A stretch of DNA of 44,406 bases. Source: Patescibacteria group bacterium. GTDB lineage: Bacteria > Patescibacteriota > Microgenomatia > UBA1400 > PJMF01. Under the pieces are notes generated by a model. The model did no database searches, was not told the origin of the DNA, and was given only the letters and a program-made list of their open reading frames with translations. The stretch lies in the NCBI GenBank assembly GCA_039714855.1, contig JBDLIL010000002.1:1-44406 (forward strand), written 5' to 3'. Both the position numbers and the translations under genes were made by a program. Positions 1 through 44,406 of the stretch are shown in pieces. The stretch's first letter is position 1. Each line of letters opens with the position of its first letter.

Positions 1-66
1 TTTGAAGACCTGGTTAAGCTAATGGTAGAGGCTGAATTAGAATTAGAGTCAAAGACGGATAATTAA
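1..66 (+). CDS. 3' end of a CDS that starts upstream of the window; possibly GDP-mannose 4,6-dehydratase
   Basis: Frame 1 is open from base 1 to TAA at 64-66 and gives FEDLVKLMVEAELELESKTDN*. An F-x-x-L-V-x-x-M-V-x-x-[DE]-L tail is typical of Gmd C-termini. A GDP-fucose synthase gene is present at 32624-33568. Confidence 0.35.
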   Translation, partial: FEDLVKLMVEAELELESKTDN

Positions 67-67
67 T

Positions 68-1252
68 ATGAAAACAGCCACTATTATTATTCCTACCTAT
101 AATGAAAAAGAAAATATCAGCAAGATAGTACCGGTATTGCAAGAAGTTTTTAAAAGCATCAAAAACTGGAATATAAACATATTGGTAGTAGACGATAGCT
201 CACCAGATAAAACTGCCGATGCAGTAAAAAAACTGCAAAAAAAATATAAAAATCTTCATCTTTTGCTAAATAAAAAGAAAGCGGGTTTGGGTAGTGCCTA
301 TTTAAAAGGTATGGCACGCGCCTTTGGAGATTTAAAGGCTGATGTGGCATTTGAGTTTGATGCTGATTTTTCCCACGATCCTAAAAAAATTCCAGAATTA
401 CTAAAGAAAATTGATGAAGGATATGATCTAGTGTTAGGTTCTCGCTATGTCAAAGGTGGCAGTATTCCTGACAATTGGGGCTTACACCGCAAGCTTTTGA
501 GTAGAGTTGGCAATTTAGTAATAATGCTAATTTTGACTGATTTTAGAATTCGCGATTGGACAGCAGGATATAGAGCTATTAGTAAAAAAGTTTATGAGGC
601 AGTTTATAAAGAAATGAGCTCTGAAAGATTTTCTGGTTACACTTTTCAAATAGGGTTTTTGCACAAAACAGTGAGAAAAGGATTTAAGGTAGCTGAAGTG
701 CCAATCAATTTTATAGATAGGACAATAGGTGAATCAAAATTAGGAGCTGAATATATAAAAAATACCTTGATATATATTGTTAAAGTTAGGATTCAGGAAA
801 TAATTAAAAATAGAGTTTTTAAATTTGCTTTTGTAGGGGGTATTGGTACCTTGGTGCAATTGCTTAGTTTGATTATTTTTCGTGCCATATTACCAGAGTT
901 TTCCTGGTTTTTTTGGACAAAGTTTTTGTTGGCTACTTTGATGGCAATAGAAATGGCAATTATTTCTAATTTTATTTGGAATAATTTATGGACTTTTTCT
1001 GATCGCAAGCTAAAAACTTCTCAAATACCTAGCAAATTTATTCAGTTCAATTTAGCTTCTTTGGGCTCAGTATTGATTCAGCTAGTGATAAATTCTAGTG
1101 GAGAGTTCCTCATAGGCTTGCACGACCTTTTCAAATTGCCAATATTGGGTTTTATGGTTGATACAGGTTTAATTTTTGCAATTACCGGGATCATTATTGG
1201 CTTATTTTGGAACTTTTTTGCATACAGCAAGTTTATATGGAGAAAAAAATAA
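68..1252 (+). CDS. GT2 polyprenyl-phosphate hexose synthase (Dpm1/GtrB-like) fused to a C-terminal GtrA-like membrane domain
   Basis: The N-terminus has IIIPTYNEKENI, VVDDSSPDKT, FEFDADFSHDP and GSRYVKGG motifs of the dolichyl/undecaprenyl-phosphate sugar synthase type. The C-terminal ~140 aa (FKFAFVGGIGTLVQL...NFFAYSKFIW) has 4 hydrophobic helices typical of GtrA. Confidence 0.8.
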   Translation: MKTATIIIPTYNEKENISKIVPVLQEVFKSIKNWNINILVVDDSSPDKTADAVKKLQKKYKNLHLLLNKKKAGLGSAYLKGMARAFGDLKADVAFEFDADFSHDPKKIPELLKKIDEGYDLVLGSRYVKGGSIPDNWGLHRKLLSRVGNLVIMLILTDFRIRDWTAGYRAISKKVYEAVYKEMSSERFSGYTFQIGFLHKTVRKGFKVAEVPINFIDRTIGESKLGAEYIKNTLIYIVKVRIQEIIKNRVFKFAFVGGIGTLVQLLSLIIFRAILPEFSWFFWTKFLLATLMAIEMAIISNFIWNNLWTFSDRKLKTSQIPSKFIQFNLASLGSVLIQLVINSSGEFLIGLHDLFKLPILGFMVDTGLIFAITGIIIGLFWNFFAYSKFIWRKK

Positions 1253-2745
1253 CTAAACTGCCCTTATCTAATTATTTAGCAATAGTAATAATTTTAATTG
1301 CGACTTTTTTTCGTCTTTACAATCTTCCCAACACATTAATGTTCCAAGGTGATCAGGGCAGAGACGCCATCATTGTAGTCAATATGCTTAGGGATTTTGA
1401 TCCTGTGTTTATCGGTCCTGTAGCTAGTGTTGGCAACCTATATTTGGGTCCTCTTTATTACTACTTTATGTTGCCATTTTTATTTTTGAGTTTTCCTAGT
1501 CCCTTAGGTCCAGCTTATGCAGTAGCAGTGCTTGGGATAGCAGCTGTTGCCTTGGTTTATCTGTTGGGCAAAAGAATGTTTGGAACTGTGACGGCTTTAT
1601 TTGCAGCTACTTTTTTGGCATTTAATTCCATCGCTATAGAATATTCTAGATTTTCCTGGAATCCCAATCCAGCTCCATTTGTGTCAATTTTGATGATTTA
1701 TTTTACTTTTATGGCTTGGAAAAAATCTCCTAAATATTGGGTTGCTGTAGCTATTTGTTTTAGTGTTCTCATTCAGTTGCATTATGTATTTTTACTTTCG
1801 GCTGCAGGAGCAGGCATTATTTGGCTTTTGCAGTTATTTGAAATAATAAAAATTAAAAACAAAAAAATAATGCATTTAATATTAGCGACTTTGTTTTCGG
1901 CTCTTATCTTTCTTTTATTTTTGTTGCCTCTGATTCTTTTTGATATCAGGCATGATTATCTAAATACTAAGGCATTTTTGGCCATGTTTACCCAAGAAGA
2001 AGCTATGAAGCAAACAGGCGGCTTACTTGCCACTTTGAAGGAAACTCATGGCAGGGGCATGCATATTTTGTTTGAGATTAGTATCGGCAAAAATAGGGCA
2101 CTAAATAGCGCTTTATATTATTTGGCCATAATAAGCTCGCTAGTCATAGCTTTTGATAAAGTTATGAGACAGGGTTACAAAAAAAATAAAGCCTTAATAG
2201 TTTTACTGAGTTTTCTATTTACTGGAATTTTAGGAACAGCTTTTTATAAACATAGTGTTTTTCATCATTATATCCTGTATTTATTTCCAGTGACTTTTTT
2301 GCTGTATGGATTTCTATCAGCCCAGCTTTGGAAGAAGAAAATATTAAGAGTTTTGCCTTTAGGTTTTTTAGCTTTTTTTATATATTTCAATTATTTCAGA
2401 TATCCTTTAGAAGATTTAGGTTGGACTATTAAAGATTACAAGCGTAGTTCTCAAAGTATAATTGATAGAGTAGAAGTAGGAGAAAAATATAATATTGTTT
2501 TACTTTCAGAATCCAAAGATTTGTATGGACAGAGTTATAGATATTTTTTAGAAACCAGTGATAGAAGGCCTGTAGATCCTGAAGAATTTTCTCAAGCAGA
2601 AACTCTTTTCATAATTAATGAAAATCAAAAAGGTAAAGATATTTTAAATTTACCAATATATGAAATTCAAACTTTTCCCAACAAAAAAATATTTGAAGAG
2701 TATAATATTACAGATGGGCCAGAAATTATCATCTTAAAAAGATAA
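1237..2745 (+). CDS. Polytopic membrane glycosyltransferase, GT-C fold (GT39/ArnT-like) with a C-terminal soluble domain
   Basis: More than 10 hydrophobic segments, with a first-loop acidic motif FQGDQGRDA. I prefer the ATG at 1237 over the TTG at 1207 used in the ORF track. It overlaps the upstream GT2-GtrA gene by 16 nt. Confidence 0.6.
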   Translation: MEKKITKLPLSNYLAIVIILIATFFRLYNLPNTLMFQGDQGRDAIIVVNMLRDFDPVFIGPVASVGNLYLGPLYYYFMLPFLFLSFPSPLGPAYAVAVLGIAAVALVYLLGKRMFGTVTALFAATFLAFNSIAIEYSRFSWNPNPAPFVSILMIYFTFMAWKKSPKYWVAVAICFSVLIQLHYVFLLSAAGAGIIWLLQLFEIIKIKNKKIMHLILATLFSALIFLLFLLPLILFDIRHDYLNTKAFLAMFTQEEAMKQTGGLLATLKETHGRGMHILFEISIGKNRALNSALYYLAIISSLVIAFDKVMRQGYKKNKALIVLLSFLFTGILGTAFYKHSVFHHYILYLFPVTFLLYGFLSAQLWKKKILRVLPLGFLAFFIYFNYFRYPLEDLGWTIKDYKRSSQSIIDRVEVGEKYNIVLLSESKDLYGQSYRYFLETSDRRPVDPEEFSQAETLFIINENQKGKDILNLPIYEIQTFPNKKIFEEYNITDGPEIIILKR

Positions 2746-2754
2746 AGTAGTTTT

Positions 2755-3516
2755 ATGTCAAAAATTTATTTATCAGTCGTAATTCCTTCTTACAATGAAG
2801 ATAAGAATTTTAAAAGAGGGGTTTTGGATGAAGTTTTGGCTTATTTAAAAAAGCAAGATTATACTTGGGAGCTAATTTTATCTGATGATGGTTCAAAAAA
2901 AAGCTTTGTAGAAAAGCTGGAAAATTTTGCCAACAAAAACAAGCATGTAAAATTATTGAAAAATATTCACGCAGGTAAATCTGCAGCTGTAAAAAGCGGT
3001 ATTTTAGCTGCTAATGGAGATTGGAGGCTTTTTACCGATTTTGATCAATCAACTCCTTTGAGTGAAATTGAGAAGCTTTTTAGGTACGCCAACAATTCCT
3101 ATGACGTGATTATAGGTTCTAGAGAGATGATAGGTTCCAAGAGGGCTAAAGAGCCTTGGTACAGACATTTGATGGGTAGAGTTTTTAATTTAGTGGTGCA
3201 AACTCTGACCATTCCTGGAATTCTTGATACTCAGTGCGGTTTTAAGCTTTTTTCTAGAGAAGCTGCTGAAAAACTTTTTTCTTCTTTGGTTGTTTATGGC
3301 GATCAAGGAGAAAGATCCAATGCTTTTACTGGAGCTTTTGATGTAGAGGCCTTGTATTTGGCCAAAAAATTTGCTTATAAAATTAGAGAAGTACCAATAA
3401 TCTGGAAGCACTACGAGACCGACAGAGTAAATCCAATAAAGGATTCTGTTCTTATGTTTTTTGATATTTTGAAAATTCGTTTGGCTGAAATGAGAGGCTT
3501 ATACAAACAAGCATGA
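2755..3516 (+). CDS. GT2, polyprenyl-phosphate beta-glucosyltransferase-like (Alg5/GtrB type)
   Basis: Motifs SVVIPSYNEDKN, LSDDGSKK, GKSAAVKSG, FTDFDQSTP and GSRE...QCGFKLF match this type. It is a short soluble GT-A enzyme. Confidence 0.7.
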   Translation: MSKIYLSVVIPSYNEDKNFKRGVLDEVLAYLKKQDYTWELILSDDGSKKSFVEKLENFANKNKHVKLLKNIHAGKSAAVKSGILAANGDWRLFTDFDQSTPLSEIEKLFRYANNSYDVIIGSREMIGSKRAKEPWYRHLMGRVFNLVVQTLTIPGILDTQCGFKLFSREAAEKLFSSLVVYGDQGERSNAFTGAFDVEALYLAKKFAYKIREVPIIWKHYETDRVNPIKDSVLMFFDILKIRLAEMRGLYKQA

Positions 3517-4808
3517 GATTATTTATTCTATATTTTTTACTTTTGATTTTTTATGCTGTTTTTTCTTATTCTCTTACTGCTCCAAATTTAGTTTTAAGCT
3601 CTTGGGAACCTTATTGGAATTTTCAAAGCTTTATGTGGGAGACATTTTTTAATAATAGACAACTGTTGACATGTTCATACTTGATTTTAATTTCATCCCT
3701 ATTTTTAGCTTATTTATTGTTAGTAAAAAAAATTAAAGATCAAAAAATAAAAGTTAAAAGTTTTGCTTTCTTGTTTTTTATTCTTTGTCTTCCATTGTTG
3801 TTCTCTAATAATGCTCTTTCTTATGATGTCTTTAATTACATGTTTAATGCCAAAGAAGTGATTTTGTATAGAGGCAATCCTCACATTCAAATTCCTCTAG
3901 ATTTTCCTCAAGATGATTGGCTCAGGTTTATGCACAATACTCACACTCCAGCTCCTTATGGCTATGGCTGGACAGCGATATCACTAATTCCTTATGTATT
4001 GGGAATGGGGAAATTTCTACCCACTTGGGTTATATTTAGACTCACTAGTTTTTTAAGCATAATTTTATTATTTTTTGCTATCAAATATTTGGCAAAAAAA
4101 CTAAGTTTAAAATTAGATACCTATCACTACGCTATTTTATTTTTAAATCCACTATTTTTAATAGAGATTATTAGCAATTCCCACAATGATCTTTGGATGA
4201 TGGCGCCGGCACTTACTTCGCTAGCGCTTGTAAATAAACAAGAATCACCAAGCACAAAACAACAAACAAACTTTAAATTTCAAATAGCAAAAATATTTAT
4301 TTCTTTGTTATTATTAATCTTTTCTATATCTATTAAGCTGTCAACTCTGGTTTTAGTGCCGATATGGTTATTCTTAATTTTTAAAAATTTGGAAATTAGT
4401 AATTGGAAATTGTTTGGGTTTTTGGATTTGTTATTTGGAATTTTAAAAAAGCATGTAATTTTACTTAGTTCTATTTTGCTTTTTATACCTCTTTTTACAG
4501 AGCGCTCTAAACAATTTTTACCCTGGTATTTACTCTGGTCTTTGGTTTGGATTCCACTTATAGAAGTAAAAATTCAAAATTCAAAATTCAAAACACTGTA
4601 TTTCATTGACAATTATTGGGTAAGTTTGCTTTTAATTTTTAGTTTTACTGCTATGTTGCGCTACACAGCATATTTGTGGTTTGGAACTTATGAGGGTTTT
4701 GTGCCACTGTGGCAAAAGTTTATCACTTGGAGTGCTTTGCCAATTTATTTAATTTGGCTTCTAGTTTTTAAATACAAAAAGAGTTTAAAGACTGTGAGAG
4801 ATTTATAG
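3513..4808 (+). CDS. Polytopic membrane protein, candidate GT-C mannosyltransferase (MptB/GT87, DUF2029-like)
   Basis: ATGA overlap with the upstream GT2. Loop motif SYDVFNYMFNAKEVILYRGNPH followed by HTPAPYGYGW resembles the S-x-D-V-x-x-Y...NPY...YGP signature of polyprenyl-P-mannose-dependent GT-C enzymes. About 11 transmembrane segments. Confidence 0.45.
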   Translation: MRLFILYFLLLIFYAVFSYSLTAPNLVLSSWEPYWNFQSFMWETFFNNRQLLTCSYLILISSLFLAYLLLVKKIKDQKIKVKSFAFLFFILCLPLLFSNNALSYDVFNYMFNAKEVILYRGNPHIQIPLDFPQDDWLRFMHNTHTPAPYGYGWTAISLIPYVLGMGKFLPTWVIFRLTSFLSIILLFFAIKYLAKKLSLKLDTYHYAILFLNPLFLIEIISNSHNDLWMMAPALTSLALVNKQESPSTKQQTNFKFQIAKIFISLLLLIFSISIKLSTLVLVPIWLFLIFKNLEISNWKLFGFLDLLFGILKKHVILLSSILLFIPLFTERSKQFLPWYLLWSLVWIPLIEVKIQNSKFKTLYFIDNYWVSLLLIFSFTAMLRYTAYLWFGTYEGFVPLWQKFITWSALPIYLIWLLVFKYKKSLKTVRDL

Positions 4809-5667
4809 CACCAATTGCTTTTTTAACATTTGTTAGCTCAAAATGAATCTCACTCTTTAGTTTATTGCAATCCATGGCAGTGTTTTTTTGCAATGGCCTG
4901 CTAGCTGTTTTTAAATATTTTTCTAAACTACCTTGCTTAATTTCAAGATCAAGATTCAAAGTTTCATTAATTAATGTTCCAAATTCGTAATCACTAAATT
5001 TTTCGCCACTGCTAGCGTGGTAAAGACCAGTAGTATTTGTTCTAATTACCCAGTCTATGATTCGTGCAAAGTCATCGATATAAGTAGGGCCAAAATAATG
5101 ATCGGTAAATAGTGGAATATTATTTTTAATACTCTGAATAGTTTTTCTCACTTGGTCGGGTTTTTCAAAACTATCTGATCTAAATGGTGTGTCTATTCTT
5201 AAAATAGTATGTTTAATGCCTGAATTTAAAATAGCCTGTTCTGCTAGATATTTTGTTTTCCCGTACCACTCTATGGGGTTAGGATTATCTTTTTCTGTAT
5301 ATAGATCTTCTTTTTCGCCATCAAATACGTACGCGGTGGAGATGTGGATTAAGTGCTTGCCAGTAGCTTCAGCAGCTTCAACAACGTTGCTGGCTCCATA
5401 AACATTAACTCGATAAGCGCTGCCATCTTTGTCACCAGCTTGCTTCCAGGCTTCAGAAACGTTGGTAAAAGCGGCCATGTTTATTACAAAAGGAGCGCTG
5501 AACTCTTCAAATGCGTTTCTGAGTTGAATATAGTCTGTTATATCTACTGGATTTTTAGGATCATTACGATCAAGATTTATAAAATCGTATTCATGAGAAA
5601 AGTCTTTTATTAGCTTGGAGCCAACCAGGCCATTGCCGCCAGTGATTAGAATCTGATTTTTTGTCAT
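4768..5667 (-). CDS. rfbD: dTDP-4-dehydrorhamnose reductase-like SDR (RmlD family)
   Basis: GGNGLVGSKL Rossmann motif. HISTAYVFDG...YGKTKYLAEQ matches the RmlD STDYVFDG / YGxxK signature. It lies directly downstream of rfbB. Confidence 0.65.
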   Translation of the reverse strand: MTKNQILITGGNGLVGSKLIKDFSHEYDFINLDRNDPKNPVDITDYIQLRNAFEEFSAPFVINMAAFTNVSEAWKQAGDKDGSAYRVNVYGASNVVEAAEATGKHLIHISTAYVFDGEKEDLYTEKDNPNPIEWYGKTKYLAEQAILNSGIKHTILRIDTPFRSDSFEKPDQVRKTIQSIKNNIPLFTDHYFGPTYIDDFARIIDWVIRTNTTGLYHASSGEKFSDYEFGTLINETLNLDLEIKQGSLEKYLKTASRPLQKNTAMDCNKLKSEIHFELTNVKKAIGAINLSQSLNSFCI

Positions 5668-5670
5668 AGC

Positions 5671-6690
5671 TTAATTTGAATAATTTTTTTTAAAAAAATC
5701 ACCGGCTTTCTCTTTAAGTGGTTTCCACCAGGATTCATTATTTAAATACCAATCAATGGTTTTTTGCATTCCTTCTTCTAGGCTTACTGATGGCTTCCAG
5801 TCAAGTTCCTGGTTAATTTTACTCCAGTCAACGGCGTAGCGCCTATCATGACCAGCTCTATCTTTAACAAAATCAATCATATCTTCCGATTTATCCATAA
5901 GCCCAATCAGCATTCTTACTAAATCTAGATTTGAAACATCATCACTTAGGCCACCAATCATGTAAGTTTCACCTATTTTGCCACTCTCAAGGATCAAGTC
6001 GATAGCTCGACAATGATCTTGCACATAGAGCCAATCGCGGACATTTTTACCATCACCATAAACTGGTACTTTTTTATTTTCCATCAGATTTGAGATAGCC
6101 AGAGGGATGAGTTTTTCAGGGTGTTGATATTCACCATAATTATTTGAGCAATTACTCAAGGTAAATTTGAGACCATAGGTTTCTCCATAGGCGCGCACCA
6201 AGTGATCGCTACCAGCTTTGCTGGCAGAATATGGACTTCTGGGATCATAAGGAGTAGATTCAGTGAATTTTTGATTTGACCCCAATTCTAAGGAGCCAAA
6301 GACCTCATCAGTAGAGATATGATGGAATTTATCAATCTTGTTTTTTAATGCAGATTCCAATAGCACTTGAGTGCCTAAAACATTGGTGTTTACAAATTGA
6401 CTTGGATTGAGAATAGATCGATCTACGTGAGATTCGGCCGCAAAATGAACGACAGTATCTACGTCGTCCATAATTTTATCTACTAATTCTCTATCAGTAA
6501 TATCACCTTGAACAAAACTATAATTGGCATTATTTTCTATTGACTCTAGAGTTTTTAGGTTGGCAGCATAAGTTAATATATCCAGATTAATAATTTTAGC
6601 ATTGGGGTGCTCTTTAAGATAATAAAGAATAAAGTTAGAGCCAATAAAACCGGCACCTCCAGTAAGCAAAATTTTAGATGAATTTTTCAT
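5671..6690 (-). CDS. rfbB: dTDP-glucose 4,6-dehydratase
   Basis: TGGAGFIGSNF, HFAAESHVDRS, HISTDEVFG, YSASKAGSDHLVRAY, SNCSNNYGEYQHPEKLIP and RDWLYVQDHC are canonical RmlB motifs found across the full length. Confidence 0.93.
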   Translation of the reverse strand: MKNSSKILLTGGAGFIGSNFILYYLKEHPNAKIINLDILTYAANLKTLESIENNANYSFVQGDITDRELVDKIMDDVDTVVHFAAESHVDRSILNPSQFVNTNVLGTQVLLESALKNKIDKFHHISTDEVFGSLELGSNQKFTESTPYDPRSPYSASKAGSDHLVRAYGETYGLKFTLSNCSNNYGEYQHPEKLIPLAISNLMENKKVPVYGDGKNVRDWLYVQDHCRAIDLILESGKIGETYMIGGLSDDVSNLDLVRMLIGLMDKSEDMIDFVKDRAGHDRRYAVDWSKINQELDWKPSVSLEEGMQKTIDWYLNNESWWKPLKEKAGDFFKKNYSN

Positions 6691-6707
6691 AATATTTAAT
6701 TTTAATT

Positions 6708-6923
6708 TTATAAATTATCGTTTCTTCGCGAAATATCTATTAATTCTTGAGTTTTTTCTACTCCCAAAGAACTTCTAACTCTAACATATCTGTCTTCCAA
6801 TCTTTTGTATCTCTTTAATTCAAGTTCAAAAAGGTTTTTATAATAAGCAGCAACAAAAGACAAGATAATTACTATTACAATCAGGCTACGAATAATGTTT
6901 TTTGAAGATATGATTTGTTTCAT
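6708..6923 (-). CDS. Small single-pass membrane protein with a charged helical tail (function unknown)
   Basis: Its ATG overlaps the LCP gene stop as ATGA (6920-6923), which suggests translational coupling. One hydrophobic helix (LIVIVIILSFVAAYY) is followed by a charged region. Confidence 0.5.
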   Translation of the reverse strand: MKQIISSKNIIRSLIVIVIILSFVAAYYKNLFELELKRYKRLEDRYVRVRSSLGVEKTQELIDISRRNDNL

Positions 6924-8089: not shown

Positions 8090-8095
8090 GAATAA

Positions 8096-31835: not shown

Positions 31836-31844
31836 TAATTTTTT

Positions 31845-36530: not shown

Positions 36531-37679
36531 ATCAGAATAGCTTTCTAAAAGCTGCTTTGTAATGCCCTCTATAGAGTATTTATTAGCAACAATTTTTTTT
36601 ACATTTTTACCCAGGCTTTTTCTTAAACTCTCATTCTTTGCCAATTTATTAATCGCCACTCCAAGATTTTTAGATTTGGGAGTGACTATCAGAGCAGCAT
36701 TATGGGTAGCAAGCTCGTTGAAATTGCATTTGTTGCTAATAATAAGTGGCAGACCAACACTAGCGGCTTCCAAAATACCTATCGAAAAACCTTCTAGATA
36801 GGATGGATAGATAAATACGTCGCTGGCTTTAAATAGTAAAGATTTTTCTTTTCCAAAACAAACACCTTTTAGTAAAACTTTTTTTGATAAATTATATTTT
36901 TTAATTTGATATTTTAGCTCATCTATGTATCCACTGTCAGAACCAGCAATCACAAAAAAAACATTGGCTATTTTAATTCTTTTAATTGCTTCTATCAAAA
37001 TATCTATACCTTTTAATTGGCTAATTCTGCCCAAAAAAGTAAATATAATTTTATCTTTGGGAAGACTAAGTTTTGTCCTAGCTTGCATTTTGCTCATCTT
37101 TGTTTCAAATTCTTGCGGATCAACTCCGTTGCCTATTCGCAAAATTTTTTCACTATTAAAACCAAGTTTTTTTAAAGTGTTTTCTTCGTTATCAGAACTA
37201 GCTATTAGTTTTTTGGCTCCACTCAACATGAGCTTGCCAAACAAAAAATAAAATATTTTTTTTGCTAAGTCCATTTTCTCCAGTGTACCGTGTACACTAA
37301 TAATATATGGCTTTTTATAAATTTTAGCTAAAAAACAAATCCAAACGTGTTGCAAAGTAAAAAAATCATGAAGGTGTAAAATGTCAAAGCTTTTTATTTC
37401 CCCAACTGCTCGAACAAATAATTTGGGGGTAAAAAACATATGATAATTAAACGCTAAATAATTGCTTAAATTAGCAAAATAATGAATTTTTAAATTTTTT
37501 GTCTTTTTGATTTTTTTAGCAGCTGGCATTCTCTGCTCTTTATCAAAACAGTCAGAAGTATAAACAGTGATCTTGTGCTTATTTTTGACAATTTCATTGC
37601 TTAAATCATAAACTAGTTTGGCTGGTCCACCATAACTCCACGCCGGATAAAAGTAGGGAACTACCTGTAAAATTTTCAT
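36525..37679 (-). CDS. GT4 (GT-B fold) glycosyltransferase
   Basis: MKILQVVPYFYPAWSYGGPAK N-terminus and the E-x7-E region PSYLEGFSIGILEAASVGLPLI. It is the last gene of the minus-strand deoxysugar operon. Confidence 0.78.
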   Translation of the reverse strand: MKILQVVPYFYPAWSYGGPAKLVYDLSNEIVKNKHKITVYTSDCFDKEQRMPAAKKIKKTKNLKIHYFANLSNYLAFNYHMFFTPKLFVRAVGEIKSFDILHLHDFFTLQHVWICFLAKIYKKPYIISVHGTLEKMDLAKKIFYFLFGKLMLSGAKKLIASSDNEENTLKKLGFNSEKILRIGNGVDPQEFETKMSKMQARTKLSLPKDKIIFTFLGRISQLKGIDILIEAIKRIKIANVFFVIAGSDSGYIDELKYQIKKYNLSKKVLLKGVCFGKEKSLLFKASDVFIYPSYLEGFSIGILEAASVGLPLIISNKCNFNELATHNAALIVTPKSKNLGVAINKLAKNESLRKSLGKNVKKIVANKYSIEGITKQLLESYSDS

Positions 37680-37680
37680 A

Positions 37681-38583
37681 CTAACTTGAGAGTGACTCCC
37701 AACACTTTTTCATGCCATCACTGATGTTTGTTTTTGCCTCCCAGGCGAAATCTTTTTTTATAACGGAAGCGTCTAGGACAATTTTTTGTAGGTCACCCAC
37801 AATTTTATCTGAGTATTCAGTTTTAGCTTTCTTTCCAGTGATTTTTTCTGCAAGACTAAGTATTTCATTGACAGAATAACCTTTTGCTGAACCAATGTTA
37901 TAAATACCTGACTTGTATTTTTTAATCGCCTTTAAAAAGAAGACGTTTAAATCATCGATGTATAAAAAATCTCTTGTACTTTTGCCATCACCCCAAATAG
38001 TTATTTTCTCATTCCTGTGAAGCTTATTTAAAACAGTAGTGATTAATCCATGTACTGCAATCTTTCCATATCCCGGACCATAGAGCACAGCAGCTCTAAT
38101 AACAAGTGGTTCTATACCGTGAAGCAATTGATAAAGTTGTAAATATTTCTCAATACTAATTTTAACAATCCCATAAGAAGATGTTGGTTTTAAGGTATCT
38201 GTTTCGGTGGCTAAATTTTGACTGTCACCGTATACAGAACAGCCAGATGAAGGGTAAATTATTTTTTTAACTCCTGCTTTGACCATCAAATCAAGTAAGT
38301 TAATGGTGGGAAGCAAGTTTGCTTTAATGTCAGCACTGGGGTTTAAATTAGAAATACGCGGACTCGTACTCATTATCAAATGAATAACTAAATCAACTTT
38401 TTTTAGAGCTCTTTTTAAAAGTGTTGAGTTCTCATATGACCCAATAAAATATCTGACTCTCTTCTCATTAGATTTAGCTTTTTTTCGCTGCAAAAGATGT
38501 AAATCGTGATCCGTATTCTTGAGTAAAAAGCTCGTTAAGTGTTGCCCCACAAAGCCACTGCTGCCCAAAATTAATATTTTCAT
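37681..38583 (-). CDS. NAD(P)-dependent SDR epimerase/reductase (candidate NDP-sugar 4-ketoreductase)
   Basis: LGSSGFVGQHL Rossmann motif and YGIVKISIEKY (YxxxK). ATGA overlap with the upstream Gfo/Idh/MocA gene. Confidence 0.6.
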   Translation of the reverse strand: MKILILGSSGFVGQHLTSFLLKNTDHDLHLLQRKKAKSNEKRVRYFIGSYENSTLLKRALKKVDLVIHLIMSTSPRISNLNPSADIKANLLPTINLLDLMVKAGVKKIIYPSSGCSVYGDSQNLATETDTLKPTSSYGIVKISIEKYLQLYQLLHGIEPLVIRAAVLYGPGYGKIAVHGLITTVLNKLHRNEKITIWGDGKSTRDFLYIDDLNVFFLKAIKKYKSGIYNIGSAKGYSVNEILSLAEKITGKKAKTEYSDKIVGDLQKIVLDASVIKKDFAWEAKTNISDGMKKCWESLSS

Positions 38584-39464
38584 ACGGCTTTCCTCAACAT
38601 CTCTAACGCCATAGCATCATTAATAAAATCTTTATAAAAAGCACTCCAGTTTCTTTTTGCAATGCTATCAGTGGCAACTTTCAAAAAAACTTCAAAAGAA
38701 TCTGAGGCTTTTATTTTTTTTATTTTGTTATTTACAAGAATCTTATTTTCTAAATCTGCAGGAGTAGTGAATACCCTATCTACACTTACAATCTTATCTT
38801 CAGCAATAAATATGGCATTGTTTATATACCCTGAATTAAAACCACAATTGCCTATAACTATCTTATTTTTTGGATAGCTTGCAAAAAAACTAAAGGCCAC
38901 AGGAACTCCATTTTTGTTATCGGTAACTTCCAGCAAAACTTTTTTTGGCTGGCTAGCAAAGAATAATCTCCCTACACTCATGGCATATGGACCTAAGTCT
39001 TCAATGGCACCGCCGCCAGCTTTTTTGGAATATCTGTAATTATTATTTTCAAATTTTGGAAAAGAGAAATTGATATTAATCTTATTGGGATTTCCCAAGT
39101 TTTTTAGAAATTTAATTTGTGGGTGATAGGCATAAACAGTAGCCTCAGCTAAAAGTAATTTTTTTCTCTTGGCTAAACTGAGTAACTGTCTAGCTTGTTT
39201 TAAATTGCTGGTTGCTGGTTTATCAACGATGACATGCATTCCTGCATCAAGCGCTTTCTTAGCCCATTTGTAGTGTAAGCTATTTATTAGGCTTATATAG
39301 ACAATATCTGCCTGACTTTTTTCCAAAGCCTGAGCATAATTACCCCAATCTGCTTTTTGGGAAATTGATGCAATCTCAATCTTTGTAATGGCATCTATTT
39401 TTCTTATGGCAAAAAGTATTCTTCTTTTAAATATAGAAGATTTCCCCAAAACTAAGATTTTCAT
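38580..39464 (-). CDS. Gfo/Idh/MocA-family oxidoreductase (candidate NDP-hexose C-3 ketoreductase)
   Basis: An N-terminal Rossmann region followed by HYKWAKKALDAGMHVIVDKP (the E/D-K-P motif of this family). It lies immediately downstream of the 2,3-dehydratase with an ATGA overlap. Confidence 0.65.
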   Translation of the reverse strand: MKILVLGKSSIFKRRILFAIRKIDAITKIEIASISQKADWGNYAQALEKSQADIVYISLINSLHYKWAKKALDAGMHVIVDKPATSNLKQARQLLSLAKRKKLLLAEATVYAYHPQIKFLKNLGNPNKININFSFPKFENNNYRYSKKAGGGAIEDLGPYAMSVGRLFFASQPKKVLLEVTDNKNGVPVAFSFFASYPKNKIVIGNCGFNSGYINNAIFIAEDKIVSVDRVFTTPADLENKILVNNKIKKIKASDSFEVFLKVATDSIAKRNWSAFYKDFINDAMALEMLRKAV

Positions 39465-40702
39465 AGAGTTGCAATCAAGCTTCTAGCTTCTACGTTAAAA
39501 TACGATTTTTTTACTAGAGTAAACAGTTCATCTTTACTCATCCAATAAAAATTTGCTGGCACATAAGCAGGGTTTGCTTTTACTATCATATATCTATTTT
39601 GTGCATGGTAAAACCTCCCACCTTCTTCAGACAAAAGAGTGTCAAAATCTATCTTAGACTTCGGTGCATTTAAAAAGTATTCCATTAGAGGAGACATTCC
39701 TTCTGTTTTAAGCCTGTTCTTATAATCTGAAAAAGAAACAGTGGGAGCCAAATCAAATAAATTTCTATTTCCAGCTTCTATTTTTGCCTGAACAAGATAT
39801 TTACCTTCGTGCTCTATGAATCCTATCAAGCCAATGCCGGCATCTTTAAATAGTGGCTGAGTCCACCTGACAACCTCTCTATTTTTTGCTTCAACTTCTA
39901 CAGCTATGACAGAAAAATATTTTTTATCTTTGTGAAAAATTTCCCTCTCATTTCTATTCCATTTTTCGACGTTGTTTAATGATATTAGTTTACTTTCAAG
40001 CCAATATTTTTTCTTTAACTCATTTACCCAATGAATAATTTTATCTACGGGTGCTTTTCCGCTATGCATACAAGATAAGACTGTCCTGGCATCCATGTTT
40101 ATCAAATTATCTTCATGAATTAATGACTTAAGGTTTTCCAAAGAAATCCAGAAAAAATCACTATCGACTTTTATATTTCCATCAATTTCCAAAAGGATAT
40201 TTCTATTTTGCTTTTTATAAAATCTTGCACCCTGCTCAGGCTGTAAAATATCAAATAAAACTTTTGCTCCATTCTCTTTCGGATTTAAAAAAAATTCCAA
40301 GTATTTTGGAAACTTGCCATCATGGACCTTTGTATAGTTGCTTTTTGTTGCCTGCACGGTAGGCGAGAGCTGAACTAAGTTTATATTTCCAGGCTCCATT
40401 TTGGCCTGCATTAGCAAATGTCGCTTGCCATTTACCAATTTGCTAATAATTCCCAAAATGCCTTCTTCTGGCTGATGAATAATTGGCTGATTCCAATTAG
40501 TAACATTGGCGAAATTAGTTTTCACCTCCATGCCCTTCACCGTAAAAAATTTTCCTGATTTATGCTGCAAATCTCCAGTAGTATCATTAAAATACCAGCT
40601 CTCAAGCATATCAAAATTTATTGGCCTAACTCGAAACAGATCTTTTGTTGAGATGCTATTGAACCAATTAAAAAAGCTTGATAAAGTTTTACTTGTATTC
40701 AC
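39461..40702 (-). CDS. NDP-hexose 2,3-dehydratase (EvaA/TylX3/OleV family)
   Basis: Two internal homologous halves are present. The first reads HKSGKFFTVKGM...WNQPIIHQPEEGILGII...LMQAKMEPGN...LSPTVQATKSNY...EQGARFYKKQNR. The second reads WTQPLF...GLIGFI...LVQAKIEAGN...LAPTVSFS...EEGGRFYHAQNR. The start is uncertain: I take the GTG at 40702, while the track's GTG at 40825 overlaps the divergent gene. Confidence 0.8.
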   Translation of the reverse strand: MNTSKTLSSFFNWFNSISTKDLFRVRPINFDMLESWYFNDTTGDLQHKSGKFFTVKGMEVKTNFANVTNWNQPIIHQPEEGILGIISKLVNGKRHLLMQAKMEPGNINLVQLSPTVQATKSNYTKVHDGKFPKYLEFFLNPKENGAKVLFDILQPEQGARFYKKQNRNILLEIDGNIKVDSDFFWISLENLKSLIHEDNLINMDARTVLSCMHSGKAPVDKIIHWVNELKKKYWLESKLISLNNVEKWNRNEREIFHKDKKYFSVIAVEVEAKNREVVRWTQPLFKDAGIGLIGFIEHEGKYLVQAKIEAGNRNLFDLAPTVSFSDYKNRLKTEGMSPLMEYFLNAPKSKIDFDTLLSEEGGRFYHAQNRYMIVKANPAYVPANFYWMSKDELFTLVKKSYFNVEARSLIATL

Positions 40703-40732
40703 TTTGATAGAGAATAACAAAGTGTTAAATAT

Positions 40733-41941
40733 ATGAAAAGTATTGTTATTCTTATCAATCACTTCCAGCCAAAAATTGGCTATCAAGAATTTTTTCTTGC
40801 TAAAGAGTGGAAAAAGCTGGATCACAAGGTTACCGTAGTCACTTCAAATTACTTTTTTCCTTTTCCTAATTATGAAAATACGGTGCAATCAATTTTGGGA
40901 GAAAGAAAAAGAGAAATCGGTAGAAAAAAAGAAAGAGGCATAGACAGCATAAGATTAAAATCTAGTTTTCAGTTGCCAGGAGGGTTTGTTGCTTGGCTGG
41001 ACAATTTGGAAGAAACTTTAGCCAAACTAAAACCAGATTTAGTATTTGCTGATGGCGTGTTTCAACCACTAGCACTGCAAATATCACTCATTAAAAACAA
41101 GCAAAAATTTTTACTCGCTTTTGACTCGCATGCTTCAAGCTTTAATACCGACTTACATTCTAGCTTTTTAAAAAAGAGCTATATGTTTCTTTTTCAGAAA
41201 TTGCTAATTCCAAAAATAAAATCGGCTGCAAATGTTTTTACAGCAGTAGGAGAATCAGAGAGAAAAACATTAATAAAAGAATATGGATTAAAAGCAAGAC
41301 AAGTAAGGCTAATTCATCTCGGAGCAGATACAAGTATTTTTTACCCAGATTTAAAATCGAGATCAATCATCAGGAAAAAGCTTAAAGTCTCTGATAAAGA
41401 AATACTTTTTGTTTATGCTGGAAAAATAACAAAAAACAAAGATGTTCATGTCCTTATCCCAGCATTTGCTAAGCTTTTAGAAAAACAAAGTAAATCTAAA
41501 TTGCTAATCATTGGTACTGGTGCTGATAAATACATGAAAAAATTAGTCAATTTGGCGAAAGAAAGTAACTGCTATGAAAACATAATTTGGCTGCCGCAGC
41601 AAAAACATAAAAAACTGGCTCAATATTATAACGCCGCTGATATCGGCGTTTGGCCGGGTGACTTGTCTAATACTATTCAAGAATGCATGGCGTGCGGCAA
41701 AGTAGTAATACTAGCCAACAAAATTTCCAAACAGCAAAGTAGCAAGCACTTAACAAAAAGCATGGGGGTATTTGCTTTTAAACGAGGGTCTATAAGATCT
41801 CTCTCAAGAGTCATGATTAACCTCTGTAGCTCAAAAACAAAGCTTACTCAGCTGGGAAAAGAATCTCAAAAAACAATAGTCACAGAATTTAGCTGGAAAC
41901 AAATAGCAAAAAAACATTTGGAGGTTTTAACTCATGATTAA
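40733..41941 (+). CDS. GT4 (GT-B fold) glycosyltransferase
   Basis: Two-domain GT-B layout, with FVYAGKITKNKDVHVLI...LLIIGTGAD and a C-terminal nucleotide-sugar binding region. It is more divergent than the other GT4s. Confidence 0.6.
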   Translation: MKSIVILINHFQPKIGYQEFFLAKEWKKLDHKVTVVTSNYFFPFPNYENTVQSILGERKREIGRKKERGIDSIRLKSSFQLPGGFVAWLDNLEETLAKLKPDLVFADGVFQPLALQISLIKNKQKFLLAFDSHASSFNTDLHSSFLKKSYMFLFQKLLIPKIKSAANVFTAVGESERKTLIKEYGLKARQVRLIHLGADTSIFYPDLKSRSIIRKKLKVSDKEILFVYAGKITKNKDVHVLIPAFAKLLEKQSKSKLLIIGTGADKYMKKLVNLAKESNCYENIIWLPQQKHKKLAQYYNAADIGVWPGDLSNTIQECMACGKVVILANKISKQQSSKHLTKSMGVFAFKRGSIRSLSRVMINLCSSKTKLTQLGKESQKTIVTEFSWKQIAKKHLEVLTHD

Positions 41942-43571
41942 GAATAAAATAGTTGTTATTTGTAGCTTAGTATTTGTACTTGTTACAAGCATTAGCGGCC
42001 ATTTGTTTTTTTCTCACCTGGGTTTTAATCCTACAGACGATGGATATCCATTGGCAGCATCTCGCAGGATTCTAGATGGAGAAATTCCTCATAGAGATTT
42101 TGTTTCGGTTCGACCAGCCCTTAGCCACTATATACACGCCCCCATAATATCATTCAATAAAAAACATCTTCTTTTGCTTTCTAGATACTTTGTTTTGATA
42201 GAGTTTTCTCTCATTAGTCTTTCTTGGCTCTTCATAGCGAATAAATTATTAAAAATTAATTTTTTCAAAAACACAAAAAACTTAATGCTTTTTTTTAGCA
42301 TTGGCCTACTTAGCTTTATTTATAATTTACACAACTTCCCCATCATGGTTTGGCAAAGTATTGATGCCATGTTTTTTTCTTCTGTAGGCATAGCTCTACT
42401 CACCCACGCAGATAAAAGAACGAGTCTTAAAATAATGGCTTATATGCTGATTGGTTGTTCTCCACTGCTTAAACAAAATTTTGTTTTAATTCCTATTTTT
42501 ACTTTTATTTTATTTTTTAAAAAAAAGAATTTTTTAGATTCACTAGCTATGGCGATACCTGGACTGCTTTATCTGTTTTTTCTCGCCATTAATAATGCTA
42601 TTGAGCCCATGATTGCTCAGTTATTTTATAAAAATAATTATAATTTTTTTACATATTTGAGAGTTCCAAACAGTTTTCTCATGGTCTTGCTAGGAATAAT
42701 TGCTGGATTCTCTTTGAAGAGTAAAAGTATGTTTCTAAAAAGCTTTGCCTCCCTCTTAAGTTTGGGGTTTTTGATTTATATATCTATGTCACTTAGAAAT
42801 GCTTCAGGTTTTTTGACAAAATATTCATTTTATTTATTTTATTATCTATTGGCACTCAGTATAGCTAGTTTGCTGTGGATCAAAAAAAGTAGAAGCTTGT
42901 TTTTGTTTCAGGTTTTATCATTGCTATCAGCTTTTACTATATCCATATCTCTTGGATATAACAGCCCCGCATTAGCCAGTGGAATCCTGATAATGACAAT
43001 TCTCTTATCTGCGTACAAAGAAATAGAGAAAAAAAACATTGCTCTTGTTTTATCAGGATCACTTTTTTTGATCATGTTTTTATTAAGCTTGCAAAACTTT
43101 ATATTTATGAGAACTTATGGAGTCTATAGAGACAAACCCGCAAAATTTTTGAAATATGACTTGGGAGGAGTTTTGGGAGGAGGAGCTGGTATAAAAACAA
43201 ATAAGCTAACATACCAATACTTAAAAGACTTAAAAGAAATAATTTCCAAAACAAATAAACCATATGTTTTGTTGCCAGATAATTCTATACACTGGGTTAC
43301 TAGCAAACAACGAAATCCACTCTCTGTAGATTGGCCTCAACCCATTGAGTTAGCCAATCAAAAGATAAGAAAAAAAGCACTGAGTGATTTAGACAAGCAT
43401 TTTTCTAGTGGGGGAGTAGCCATCATCCAAAAAATTAATGCGAGCACCCTATTCATTGGAAAAATTAAATTAAACAAAGATGAATATGCCTTAGTAAAAC
43501 ACACAGTAGATTCTTATGAGAAATTTGATGAAACTGAGTTTTTTGCAACTTACAAAAAAGTATCAGAATGA
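41934..43571 (+). CDS. Hypothetical polytopic membrane protein with a C-terminal soluble domain (candidate GT-C or polymerase)
   Basis: 8-nt overlap upstream. First-loop motif NPTDDGYPLAASRRILDGEIPHRDF, about 12 transmembrane segments and a ~170-aa hydrophilic C-terminus. Confidence 0.45.
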   Translation: MIKNKIVVICSLVFVLVTSISGHLFFSHLGFNPTDDGYPLAASRRILDGEIPHRDFVSVRPALSHYIHAPIISFNKKHLLLLSRYFVLIEFSLISLSWLFIANKLLKINFFKNTKNLMLFFSIGLLSFIYNLHNFPIMVWQSIDAMFFSSVGIALLTHADKRTSLKIMAYMLIGCSPLLKQNFVLIPIFTFILFFKKKNFLDSLAMAIPGLLYLFFLAINNAIEPMIAQLFYKNNYNFFTYLRVPNSFLMVLLGIIAGFSLKSKSMFLKSFASLLSLGFLIYISMSLRNASGFLTKYSFYLFYYLLALSIASLLWIKKSRSLFLFQVLSLLSAFTISISLGYNSPALASGILIMTILLSAYKEIEKKNIALVLSGSLFLIMFLLSLQNFIFMRTYGVYRDKPAKFLKYDLGGVLGGGAGIKTNKLTYQYLKDLKEIISKTNKPYVLLPDNSIHWVTSKQRNPLSVDWPQPIELANQKIRKKALSDLDKHFSSGGVAIIQKINASTLFIGKIKLNKDEYALVKHTVDSYEKFDETEFFATYKKVSE

Positions 43572-43588
43572 GCTAATATGGAGACATT

Positions 43589-44406
43589 ATGAAGGTTTTA
43601 GTCACAGGAGGATGTGGTTTTTTAGGTACAAATATATGCCTTTACTATATAAAAAAAGGTGCTCAAGTTGTTGCGTATGACAATCTGGCCAAACATGAGT
43701 TTTCTAGAAACAAATACATGAAGAAAAGTGCTAGAAATTACAATAGAAAAATTTTAAAAGAAAAAGGAGCAAAAATACTAATCAAGGATATTACAAATAA
43801 AAAAGATTTACTAAGAGCTGCCAAAGGATGTGATTATATATGTCACACAGCCGCCCAGCCAGCAATGACTATATCTTGGGAAGATCCAGAACTAGATTTC
43901 TACAGCAATACTCTAGGAACTTTCAACGTACTAGAGGTAGCCAGAAAATTAGATATACCCGTTGCCATATCTTCAAGCGTGCACACATATGGACCAAAAC
44001 TCATCAACTCTCAATTAAAAGAAAAGAAAACTAGGTATGTCAGAAAACCTGTGTCTATTAATGAGAATGAACCTTTGCTTCAGGGCATGATTACACCACT
44101 ACATGCTTCTAAAAGAAGTAATGAGATATATGCCCAATCTTATATAGATACCTACGATATGAAAATTGCCTGCTTTAGATTAACAGGTATCTATGGACCA
44201 AACCAGTTTGGCGGAGAAGATCACGGATGGGTTGCCAATTTCTCCATTAGAGCCTATTTGGGACTGCCCATTACGCTATTTGGAACAGGCAAGCAATTGC
44301 GAGACATACTTTACGAAACAGATGTAGCTAGAGCTTTCGATGCATTTTATAAAAAACAAATACCAGGGATATACACATTGGGAGGAGGGAAACCCAACAT
44401 GATATC
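43589..44406 (+). CDS. NAD-dependent sugar epimerase, CDP-paratose/tyvelose 2-epimerase-like SDR (3'-truncated by the window edge)
   Basis: This gene is not in the ORF track because it has no stop in the window. ATG at 43589 gives MKVLVTGGCGFLGTNI..., with HTAAQPAMT, an insertion before the YxxxK region (HASKRSNEIY) and FGGEDHGWVANF. The frame stays open to base 44406. Confidence 0.6.
   Translation, partial: MKVLVTGGCGFLGTNICLYYIKKGAQVVAYDNLAKHEFSRNKYMKKSARNYNRKILKEKGAKILIKDITNKKDLLRAAKGCDYICHTAAQPAMTISWEDPELDFYSNTLGTFNVLEVARKLDIPVAISSSVHTYGPKLINSQLKEKKTRYVRKPVSINENEPLLQGMITPLHASKRSNEIYAQSYIDTYDMKIACFRLTGIYGPNQFGGEDHGWVANFSIRAYLGLPITLFGTGKQLRDILYETDVARAFDAFYKKQIPGIYTLGGGKPNMI

Follow-up and report, generated by a model that had tools for sequence, protein, structure and literature searches.

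A candidate cell-envelope glycopolymer locus rich in predicted GT-C glycosyltransferases is conserved among Microgenomates-type Patescibacteria

In mycobacteria and corynebacteria, arabinogalactan and lipomannan/lipoarabinomannan (LM/LAM) are built by WecA, WbbL and GlfT1/2, then by the GT-C glycosyltransferases AftA-D, EmbA/B and MptA/B, which draw on polyprenyl-phosphate donors, with ligation by Lcp1 as the last step. Gram-positive bacteria use multi-component transmembrane glycosylation systems such as CsbB/GtcA/YfhO, GtlA/GtlB and, for the group A carbohydrate, GacI/GacJ/GacK/GacL (PMC8035078). Other points of comparison for the locus described here are ArnT, the GT83 enzyme that transfers 4-amino-arabinose to lipid A, and the Wzx/Wzy loci for O-antigen and capsule. 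Bacteria of the candidate phyla radiation (CPR; Patescibacteria) account for a large share of bacterial diversity and live on other cells, with genomes that are tiny; to our knowledge, almost nothing is known of their surface chemistry. Here we analyse contig JBDLIL010000002.1 of a Patescibacteria group bacterium (assembly GCA_039714855.1), a complete contig of 44,406 bp from a marine metagenome, which in its full length is called the window. We hold it somewhat probable that the window carries a conserved cell-envelope glycopolymer locus of a Microgenomates-type CPR bacterium, with assembly in two stages and attachment by an LCP (LytR-CpsA-Psr) enzyme.

The window has a flat GC content of about 0.32 (range 0.30-0.35) and contains 41 open reading frames (ORFs) of at least 100 aa, including an overlapping artefact at 36925, plus one conserved gene of 71 aa. 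Families were assigned with Pfam and NCBIfam in a scan that covered the ORFs of at least 100 aa. Nine proteins matched Glycos_transf_2 (GT2; starts 68, 2755, 12479, 13428, 14339, 16263, 25181, 30835 and 31845), four matched Glycos_transf_1 (GT4; 15142, 25998, 36525 on the minus strand, and 40733), and there was one match each to Polysacc_synt_3 (the Wzx flippase, 9806) and LytR_cpsA_psr (6920, minus strand). These are exactly the numbers counted in an initial annotation made from the sequence alone. That annotation had also recognized no initiating phosphoglycosyltransferase (PGT), Wzy or Wzz, and indeed no protein of at least 100 aa in the window matched the Pfam families for PGT (PF00953, PF02397), Wzy (PF04932/EpsG) or Wzz (PF02706). 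The sugar-nucleotide genes comprise RmlB, RmlD, four further epimerases/dehydratases of the short-chain dehydrogenase/reductase (SDR) type, a hexapeptide acyltransferase, and a cassette of a nucleoside diphosphate (NDP)-hexose 2,3-dehydratase, a Gfo oxidoreductase and an SDR. Predicted GT-C genes sum to 6147 aa, or 41% of the window, and all glycosyltransferases together to 69%. The sole non-glycan ORFs are two minus-strand ORFs without a family at 11339-12460, which bears out the earlier statement that no housekeeping gene interrupts the window; nor did Pfam reveal mobile-element genes there.

Relatives were collected with an alignment of GT-C family A, the four tandem paralogues A1-A4 of the window, which was scanned against one genome per species and returned 525; the best 80 loci were compared over 10-kb flanks of the A1 orthologue, and each ORF in them was labelled by its best-matching window protein. 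The conserved gene order proved to be rmlB and the LCP gene, both on the minus strand, followed by B1, Wzx, GT2a, GT2b, GT2c, GT4a, GT2d, A1, A2, A3, A4, GT2e, GT4b, B2, a PIG-V-like gene, an epimerase gene and a PpgS-like gene. Across the 80 loci, 607 of the 619 adjacent labelled gene pairs stood in window order, and at least ten core genes were present in 36 loci despite the flank limit. From 5671 to 31500, the window is gene-for-gene collinear with loci of Pacebacteria-, Woesebacteria- and Microgenomates-type genomes. The term 'island' used previously thus gives way to a conserved collinear core of the lineage. The related loci have 0.18-0.47 large polytopic ORFs per kb, vs 0.32 per kb in the window, and because the locus is conserved and collinear across relatives, its GT-C density is routine for the lineage. 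The initial annotation had allowed that such loci might turn out to be both routine and already characterized; the former holds, but a full-text literature search of partial coverage, in which absence is not proof, yielded no description of GT-C arrays or of LCP-linked glycan loci from CPR, Patescibacteria or Microgenomates. Dozens of related genomes keep this gene order, which makes the locus an old core trait of the lineage; its product is probably a cell-wall glycan.

Within the window, the core opens on the minus strand with an RmlB-type NDP-hexose 4,6-dehydratase (5671-6690; PF16363, 281 bits), whose orthologue occupies the same place in relatives, and a predicted LCP glycopolymer-to-peptidoglycan ligase (6920-8032; PF03816, 99 bits; TIGR00350, 77 bits against a cut-off of 62.3). 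Where the flank of a relative extends to this point, the LCP gene stands at the head of the locus. On the plus strand follow B1 (8096-9802), the Wzx/MOP flippase (9806-11314; PF13440, 153 bits; NCBIfam MOP flippase, E 2e-23) and five cytoplasmic glycosyltransferases, with orthologues in the 80 loci as indicated: GT2a (12479-13384; 46/80), GT2b (13428-14342; 55/80), GT2c (14339-15160; 59/80), GT4a (15142-16266; 63/80) and GT2d (16263-17105; 53/80). The best model of GT2b is a rhamnosyltransferase subfamily (TIGR01556, E 2.5e-16, below cut-off). Next come the family A genes A1 (18505-20145), A2 (20164-21879), A3 (21866-23542) and A4 (23539-25155), and then GT2e (25181-25993; 35/80), GT4b (25998-27053; Pfam and NCBIfam), B2 (27043-28716), the PIG-V/GT76-like GT-C (28697-29863), an SDR-type NDP-sugar epimerase/dehydratase (29884-30801; PF01370, 209 bits) and the PpgS/DPM-like GT2 (30835-31500), all on the plus strand. 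In a tree of 259 family A proteins, A1, A2 and A3 formed separate, essentially single-copy clades (79, 63 and 37 loci, with support of 99, 97 and 99 respectively). Because of these clades, the four tandem paralogues appear to be ancient and functionally distinct orthologue groups. Recent tandem amplification of the four had been considered and was ruled out, each having its own cross-genome orthologue clade.

Of the polytopic proteins in the window, ten had previously been taken for GT-Cs and three (34177, 35160 and 41934) left unassigned. Profile comparisons and a structure model indicate that 12 of these 13 are GT-Cs, the exception being o34177: each of the ten has sequence or profile support and none looks like a transporter, and of the remaining three, o35160 and o41934 join the predicted GT-Cs, with o34177 as an accessory partner of o35160. 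(The label o1207 denotes the gene with start 1237, and o28682 that with start 28697; both starts, as first proposed, agree with the public gene call and an internal ATG; for the minus-strand gene o17059, the number gives its lower coordinate.) In a hydropathy scan, each of the 12 candidates showed 6-11 strong transmembrane (TM) peaks, a number that rose when the threshold was lowered. PMT_2 (PF13231) reached or exceeded its curated Pfam cut-off in o1207 (1237-2745, plus strand; 28.1 bits against 26.1; nine TM segments), in the ArnT-like o17059 (17059-18477, minus strand; 70.7 bits), in A3 (27.8 bits) and in A4 (37.2 bits). A1 and A2 are assigned by paralogy to A3 and A4 (phmmer E 1e-29 to 1e-59), and a profile of the four family A proteins matched ArnT in the PDB with E 0.003; o17059 itself matched the ArnT structure 5ezm (E 8e-10) and the NCBIfam ArnT model (E 1e-12). 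Family B consists of B1, which has an AftD-like N-terminal core, 11 TM segments and a PMT_2 score of 26.0 bits, and its paralogue B2 (E 1e-34). Both matched GT-C_AftD (E 5.9e-6 and 5.8e-6), each 1 bit below the cut-off, and AftD was also the best PDB match of the family B profile, in the same region and with an E of only 0.12.

For the remaining candidates, orthologues or profiles were informative. Among 12 orthologues of o28682, six matched PF04188 (best 1.9e-8) and four PMT_2, and in the family of o35160, a divergent PMT_2-type protein without a large ectodomain (35160-36530, plus strand), PMT_2 was found in 16 of 44 members (best 3.4e-7). The MptA/MptB-like, GT87-type o3513 (3513-4808, plus strand; 6-10 TM segments) matched the NCBIfam MptA model (E 2.2e-9) and carries a precomputed assignment to PF26314 (MptA_B_family). 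In profile-profile alignments with hhalign, family A matched family B at 96.3%, o1207 at 98.7%, o17059 at 97.6% and o35160 at 88.6% probability, and family B matched o1207 at 96.5%; the Wzx family, a polytopic negative control, stayed at or below 1.1% to every GT-C family. PDB sequence searches gave nothing significant for the 8096/27043 pair, the o41934, o35160 and o28682 families or o3513, and the Pfam scan of window proteins left o3513, 18505, 34177 and 41934 without a match. Membership in PMT/GT39 was rejected: PMT (PF02366), MIR and PMT_4TMC were not matched, only PMT_2, and the NCBIfam Pmt model reached 30 bits vs 800.

The GT-C of the family without a Pfam or NCBIfam model, o41934 (41934-43571, plus strand), was assigned by structure prediction. 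No Pfam match was found in any of its 24 homologues. Its AlphaFold (AF2) model is confident (pLDDT 92, pTM 0.93), and the only solved structures that Foldseek returned above a probability of 0.35 were ArnT (1.00, TM-score 0.47), PglB (0.99) and Pmt1/Pmt2 (0.90), with TM-scores of 0.42-0.47; transporters all remained at or below 0.23. Conserved acidic motifs occur just after the first TM segment, in a loop whose extracytoplasmic side follows from predicted topology. The motif is [DE]-E in 54 of 54 family A sequences, H-D in 49 of 50 family B sequences (H34-D35 in B1), and an invariant NPTDDG in the o41934 family, with D-D in 24/24. In the o35160 family it reads WDxxxxYD (D128 in 44/44 and D134 in 43/44), and in the o28682 family F-D-G-x-H-Y, with F-D-G invariant. 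Single sequences gave WDEAWY for o17059, GDQGRD for o1207 and SYDVFNY for o3513.

The accessory protein o34177 (34177-35163, plus strand) combines 4-5 TM segments with a C-terminal domain of ~150 aa. It had no match in Pfam, NCBIfam or the PDB, its AF2 model was poor (pLDDT 68.5), and Foldseek gave no match above a probability of 0.25. An exhaustive HMMER search delineated a family of 766 representative clusters, mostly of 310-360 aa. In two homologues of ~770 aa, P0174 and P0199, the o34177 module lies C-terminal to an o35160-type GT-C in a natural fusion, whose N-terminal 430 residues match o35160 (hhalign 99.7%, E 3.7e-27) and contain the motif WDAVALYDARAKF. The two genes overlap by 4 nt in the window, and homologous pairs adjoin at four further places, one each in L083 and L087 and two in L088. 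Because of the fusions and this adjacency elsewhere, we conclude that o34177 is a partner subunit of o35160, which itself has no ectodomain. Its role may be to bind the acceptor for o35160, in line with a review that speculates on a second, acceptor-binding protein as a possible requirement of small GT-Cs (PMC8035078). Wzy, transporter and GT-C identities of o34177 were all rejected, given its only ~5 TM segments, the lack of any family or structure match in these searches and its tie to a GT-C. Three other homologues (P0125, P0147 and P0154; 460-495 aa) have a duplicated N-terminal TM block before the conserved C-terminal domain. L088 is a second glycan locus in genome GCA_034680565.1, and its o34177-like/o35160-like pair occurs twice in tandem (3685-8296) between SAM methyltransferases and GT4s.

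Donor synthesis is represented by o68, o2755 and o30835, which had already been described as synthases of the polyprenyl-phosphate-monosaccharide type. Their best NCBIfam models are all synthases of this kind (PgfS, ArnC, AglJ, PpgS and dolichyl-phosphate hexose transferase), matched below the equivalog cut-offs; we therefore predict the synthase activity but no particular sugar. The first, o68 (68-1252, plus strand; PF00535, 104 bits; best models PgfS, AglJ and ArnC, all under cut-off), continues into a GtrA-type domain of four TM segments (GtrA_DPMS_TM; PF04138, 63 bits, residues 252-391), a candidate flippase module. The Wzx counted in the initial annotation is indeed single, but it is not the only candidate flippase, since this fused domain had been overlooked. 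The second, o2755 (2755-3516, plus strand), is soluble, with PgfS and ArnC as its best models. The third, o30835 (NCBIfam PpgS, 100.9 bits, E 6.6e-29, cut-off 370), is a soluble GT2 whose gene overlaps by 4 nt that of o31497 (31497-31835, plus strand; PF10066, 57 bits), a DUF2304 protein of three TM segments and its predicted membrane partner; the pair is kept in L083 and L087. PpgS/Rv3632 share this layout of a GT2 and a small three-TM helper. The same arrangement is described for GacI/GacJ (PMC8035078). In the hydropathy scan, no TM segment appeared in the other six GT2s or in the four GT4s, which resemble common enzymes that depend on NDP-sugars. Two adjacent pairs, 68/1237 and 2755/3513, show the classical layout of the three-component systems, in which a GT2 synthase accompanies a GT-C, and the three types of component (synthase-type GT2, GtrA or Wzx flippase, and the 12 predicted GT-Cs) are all present.

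In function, the nearest known systems are arabinogalactan and LM/LAM assembly and, among the Gram-positive systems, above all the GacI/J/K/L branch of the group A carbohydrate; the two-stage assembly proposed below would follow the plan of arabinogalactan or of the streptococcal rhamnose polysaccharide. The locus belongs to neither enzyme set. Set against arabinogalactan, the locus appears to be alike in its way of working, not in family membership. In both, cytoplasmic GT2-type enzymes would make a lipid-linked core with a connection to the rhamnose pathway, and many distinct GT-Cs, served by few polyprenyl-phosphate-monosaccharide donors, would extend it outside the membrane; both would also have a PpgS-like GT2 with a DUF2304 partner, an LCP ligase and a PGT encoded outside the cluster. 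The window also has AftD-like and MptA-like matches, but at marginal scores (AftD, 25 bits; MptA, 37 bits), and Pfam gave no match there to Emb or to the UGM, DprE and UbiA-type families of galactofuranose and arabinofuranose donor synthesis. Flipping by Wzx here contrasts with an ABC-type transporter there, and the host belongs to a very distant lineage of ultra-small genomes.

The Gram-positive systems share the combination of a GT-A polyprenyl-phosphate-sugar synthase, a GtrA or Wzx flippase and a GT-C, and the 30835/31497 pair matches the GacI/GacJ variant; a rhamnose-linked polymer with LCP attachment would be a further likeness. Between one and three GT-Cs are known in those systems, where they attach single sugars as side chains, whereas the window encodes 12, and it has no match to YfhO. 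The fixed, conserved series of seven GT-Cs points to backbone building rather than decoration. ArnT is the best solved-structure match of o17059, of the family A profile and of the o41934 model, and has an acidic first-loop motif in common with them, but the NCBIfam score is 47 bits vs an equivalog cut-off of 567. Since lipid A is not expected in a CPR envelope of Gram-positive type, the acceptor would differ from that of ArnT. As in Wzx/Wzy loci, there are a Wzx, a set of cytoplasmic GT2s and GT4s, and NDP-sugar genes; unlike them, the window has no Wzy, Wzz or PGT match and abounds in GT-Cs, which stand outside the classical pathway. Scores to the AftD, MptA, ArnT, PpgS and Pmt models all lie below the equivalog cut-offs. 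The general logic, in which a flippase and a GT-C work from a lipid-linked monosaccharide donor, has precedents in mycobacteria and Gram-positive bacteria; what is unfamiliar is the scale, the conserved series of seven GT-C enzymes in a genome-reduced lineage, a GT-C family without a database model, and a GT-C split from, or fused to, its partner.

We propose that assembly would begin on the cytoplasmic face, where GT2a-d and GT4a, followed by GT2e/f and GT4b-d, may build a polyprenyl-diphosphate-linked oligosaccharide from NDP-sugars. The initiating PGT would be encoded outside the locus, for which there is a precedent in the 12-gene gacA-L cluster that lacks GacO (PMC6802508). The locus itself could supply dTDP-rhamnose (RmlB and RmlD), a 2,6-dideoxyhexose, and epimerized and acetylated sugars. 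Wzx would then move the lipid-linked core to the outer face of the membrane. In parallel, the three DPM1/GtrB/PpgS-like GT2s would place single sugars on polyprenyl phosphate, and the products would be flipped by the GtrA domain or by Wzx. Outside the membrane, the 12 predicted GT-Cs may extend and decorate the glycan from these lipid-linked monosaccharides; seven of them (B1, A1-A4, B2 and the PIG-V-like enzyme) would act as a fixed, ancient series, and the accessory o35160 would work with its separate membrane and ectodomain partner o34177. Finally, the LCP enzyme would ligate the finished polymer to peptidoglycan. Families, GT-C homology, first-loop motifs, synteny, orthology and the gene fusion are observed; step order, donors, acceptor and wall attachment are what we infer from them. 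On a broader and more tentative view, to which we give slightly less than an even chance, Microgenomates-type CPR make a lineage-defining, peptidoglycan-linked heteropolysaccharide that is mostly assembled outside the membrane by at least seven ancient, fixed GT-Cs and by variable accessory ones. The strategy of mycobacterial arabinogalactan would thereby have been invented a second time, independently, in genomes of ~1 Mb, and the system would include the model-less o41934 family and a two-subunit 'split' GT-C in which the o34177 family supplies acceptor recognition.

Several observations weigh against a single wall-polymer pathway of this kind. A PGT was found neither in the window nor adjoining the locus in the flanks of the three relatives examined, including GCA_034680565.1 and GCA_030154745.1. 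The window has no rmlC, though the relative GCA_030154745.1 does, so that a complete rhamnose pathway would require an rmlC at another place in the genome; a candidate rmlA lies outside the window, on a contig that extends it. A number of GT-C calls (8096, 27043, 28697, 35160 and 3513) lie at or below curated cut-offs and are supported jointly, and a modelled GT-C fold alone is not proof of transferase activity. Co-location with donor-synthase-type GT2s is what suggests that the GT-Cs use polyprenyl-phosphate-linked donors, and o1207, o17059 and o23539 also gave weak NCBIfam matches to Agl23, a 'flippase activity-associated protein'. LCP enzymes can glycosylate proteins in some actinobacteria. 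Lastly, GCA_034680565.1 shows that the locus is modular: its A1-A4 module starts beside housekeeping genes and is not adjoined by the B1-Wzx-GT2a-d module, so that the two modules could serve two different polymers.

This modularity speaks for at least two independent pathways lying side by side, namely a Wzx-dependent polysaccharide (LCP, B1, Wzx, GT2a-d and GT4a) and separate three-component systems that decorate other polymers; the locus would then be an assortment of pathways rather than a single assembly line. The GT2-GT-C pairs 68/1237 and 2755/3513 resemble stand-alone Gtr-type modules, and in Lactococcus several GT-A/GT-C pairs act on three polymers with one flippase (PMC8035078). Yet the modules are contiguous and in fixed order in most relatives, as the 607 of 619 pairs attest, and with 12 GT-Cs to three donor synthases most GT-Cs are not paired one to one. 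We consider such an arrangement unlikely, while giving it real weight.

Protein O-glycosylation is, in our view, improbable. Here, the PMT_2-type GT-Cs would glycosylate proteins that are secreted or exposed at the surface (for example pilins, S-layer proteins or adhesins), either from polyprenyl-phosphate donors or by en bloc transfer of an oligosaccharide flipped by Wzx. Pili are abundant on CPR surfaces, and the glycosylation of pilins has reportedly been discussed for Saccharibacteria. In the window, the matched Pfam family bears the name PMT_2, the best NCBIfam model of Wzx is an 'O-glycosylation flippase' (83 bits, far under the cut-off of 720), and PgfS, the top model of two donor GT2s, comes from a protein-glycosylation system. 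However, none of the proteins has the PMT (PF02366), MIR or PMT_4TMC architecture of true GT39 enzymes, and no STT3/PglB or PglL/O-antigen-ligase family was matched in the window by Pfam. The conserved locus is headed by an LCP ligase gene and rml genes, which are typical of wall polysaccharides, and 12 GT-Cs with ten soluble glycosyltransferases far exceed what known protein-glycosylation systems need.

We regard as decidedly improbable a membrane-anchored lipoglycan, similar to LM/LAM or to a glycosylated lipoteichoic acid, in which a glycolipid anchor would be the substrate that the GT-Cs lengthen, with the LCP enzyme serving another polymer. The MptA-like and PIG-V-like GT-Cs fit it in so far as relatives of both act on lipid-anchored mannans or glycosylphosphatidylinositol (GPI), as does a weak NCBIfam match of GT4c to glycolipid synthases. 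No LtaS, PimA/B-type or acyltransferase gene was detected by Pfam in the locus, though; the MptA-like gene sits in the left flank outside the region compared in relatives, and LCP belongs to the conserved core. A horizontally acquired, strain-variable island peculiar to this genome is hardly credible, because, for all its variable edges, the insertion at 11339-12460, an ArnT-like gene common to only one relative, the inverted dideoxyhexose cassette and an o41934 gene absent from L083, the flat GC, the lack of mobile-element genes in the window and a core collinear in dozens of genomes with one-to-one orthologue clades contradict it for the core, whose horizontal acquisition was rejected on GC and synteny.

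The size and kept gene order of the locus point to a major and probably essential envelope polymer: at least 45 kb is spent on glycan assembly, in an order preserved across Pacebacteria-, Woesebacteria- and Microgenomates-type genomes. Such an envelope polymer would be the first contact for a host, a phage or an immune system. Targets for heterologous assays include the three donor synthases, the GT2 with its DUF2304 helper, the model-less GT-C family and the split or fused GT-C pair; this last pair, o34177/o35160, is suited to testing whether small GT-Cs need a separate acceptor-binding subunit.

The names of the best 80 related loci are Pacebacteria, Woesebacteria, Microgenomates, Beckwithbacteria and Patescibacteria group, or are evidently wrong placeholders. 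All relatives with credible names belong to the Patescibacteria/CPR, which agrees with the host type first suggested, and the putative assignment to Microgenomates rests on the names of these relatives. About half of the loci (L003-L082) stem from third-party assemblies and are titled 'uncultured Pseudomonadales bacterium', and single ones Vitreimonas, Methylococcaceae or Gammaproteobacteria. These labels are probably wrong, since the GC range and gene order of the loci are the same as in those with CPR names.

Downstream of the core, the window continues on the plus strand with GT2f (31845-32627; Pfam and NCBIfam), an NDP-sugar epimerase/dehydratase (32624-33568; Pfam) and a hexapeptide-repeat protein (33540-34202; PF00132), predicted to be a sugar N- or O-acetyltransferase, followed by the o34177/o35160 pair. 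A minus-strand block then comprises GT4c (36525-37679; Pfam and NCBIfam), an SDR epimerase/reductase (37681-38583; Pfam) and a Gfo/Idh/MocA oxidoreductase (38580-39464; Pfam), which may act as the 4-ketoreductase and 3-ketoreductase, respectively, of a deoxyhexose cassette, and the NDP-hexose 2,3-dehydratase of 419 aa (39461-40720; PF03559, 424 bits in two halves). GT4d (40733-41941, plus strand; Pfam and NCBIfam) precedes o41934. Synteny with L083, from GCA_034680565.1, reaches from 25181 to 41941, and the four-gene deoxyhexose block (window 36525-40720) is inverted relative to L083 11390-15626.

At the right edge, the contig end cuts an SDR epimerase/dehydratase gene (43589-44406, plus strand; Pfam). 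A public contig of the same sample, L002, runs 3.3 kb further and contains the remainder of this epimerase (full length 346 aa), an NTP-transferase, a GT2 and a Gfo/GFO oxidoreductase. The earlier claims that the locus exceeds the window and that its right edge interrupts a sugar gene were therefore correct. At the left edge, no more than the final 21 codons (FEDLVKLMVEAELELESKTDN*) of a cut gene remain (1-66, plus strand); the encoded C-terminus may resemble that of GDP-mannose 4,6-dehydratase.

Specific to the window are the insertion at 11339-12460, the ArnT-like accessory gene at 17059, shared at that place only with L019, the absence of rmlC, and o41934, which L083 lacks; the left flank (68-4808), beyond the 10-kb flanks of the relatives, is possibly window-specific as well. 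The rmlB gene directly adjoins that of an RmlD-type dTDP-4-dehydrorhamnose reductase (4768-5667, minus strand; PF04321, 190 bits), so that 4768-6690 holds the two with no rmlC between them. In L086, from GCA_030154745.1, the LCP gene is followed by a small TM protein, rmlB, rmlC, rmlD and then trmD. The small protein corresponds to the conserved 71-aa single-TM protein of the window (6708-6923, minus strand), whose gene is ATGA-coupled to that of LCP; it and its 77-aa orthologue, at the same position in L086, share the motif Y-x-x-L-E-D-x-Y-V-R-x-R. It is possible that this conserved protein, missed by annotation, acts together with the LCP ligase.

The insertion between Wzx and GT2a consists of two minus-strand ORFs of 194 and 171 aa that are absent from this position in the 80 related loci and have no family match in Pfam or NCBIfam; they probably lie outside the pathway. 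Both were called with TTG starts; translation may in fact begin at ATGs further downstream. At their 5' ends lies a direct repeat of 46 nt (11868-11913 and 12397-12442, 83% identical), whose reverse complement begins TTGACA and which may be a repeated promoter or 5' element. Finally, a homologue of o41934 with 33% identity stands alone among dnaX, recR and recA in L084 (10001-11734). A Por_Secre_tail protein is encoded nearby, and for this reason the L084 genome is probably non-CPR and Bacteroidota-like; the o41934 family would therefore be wider than the CPR.

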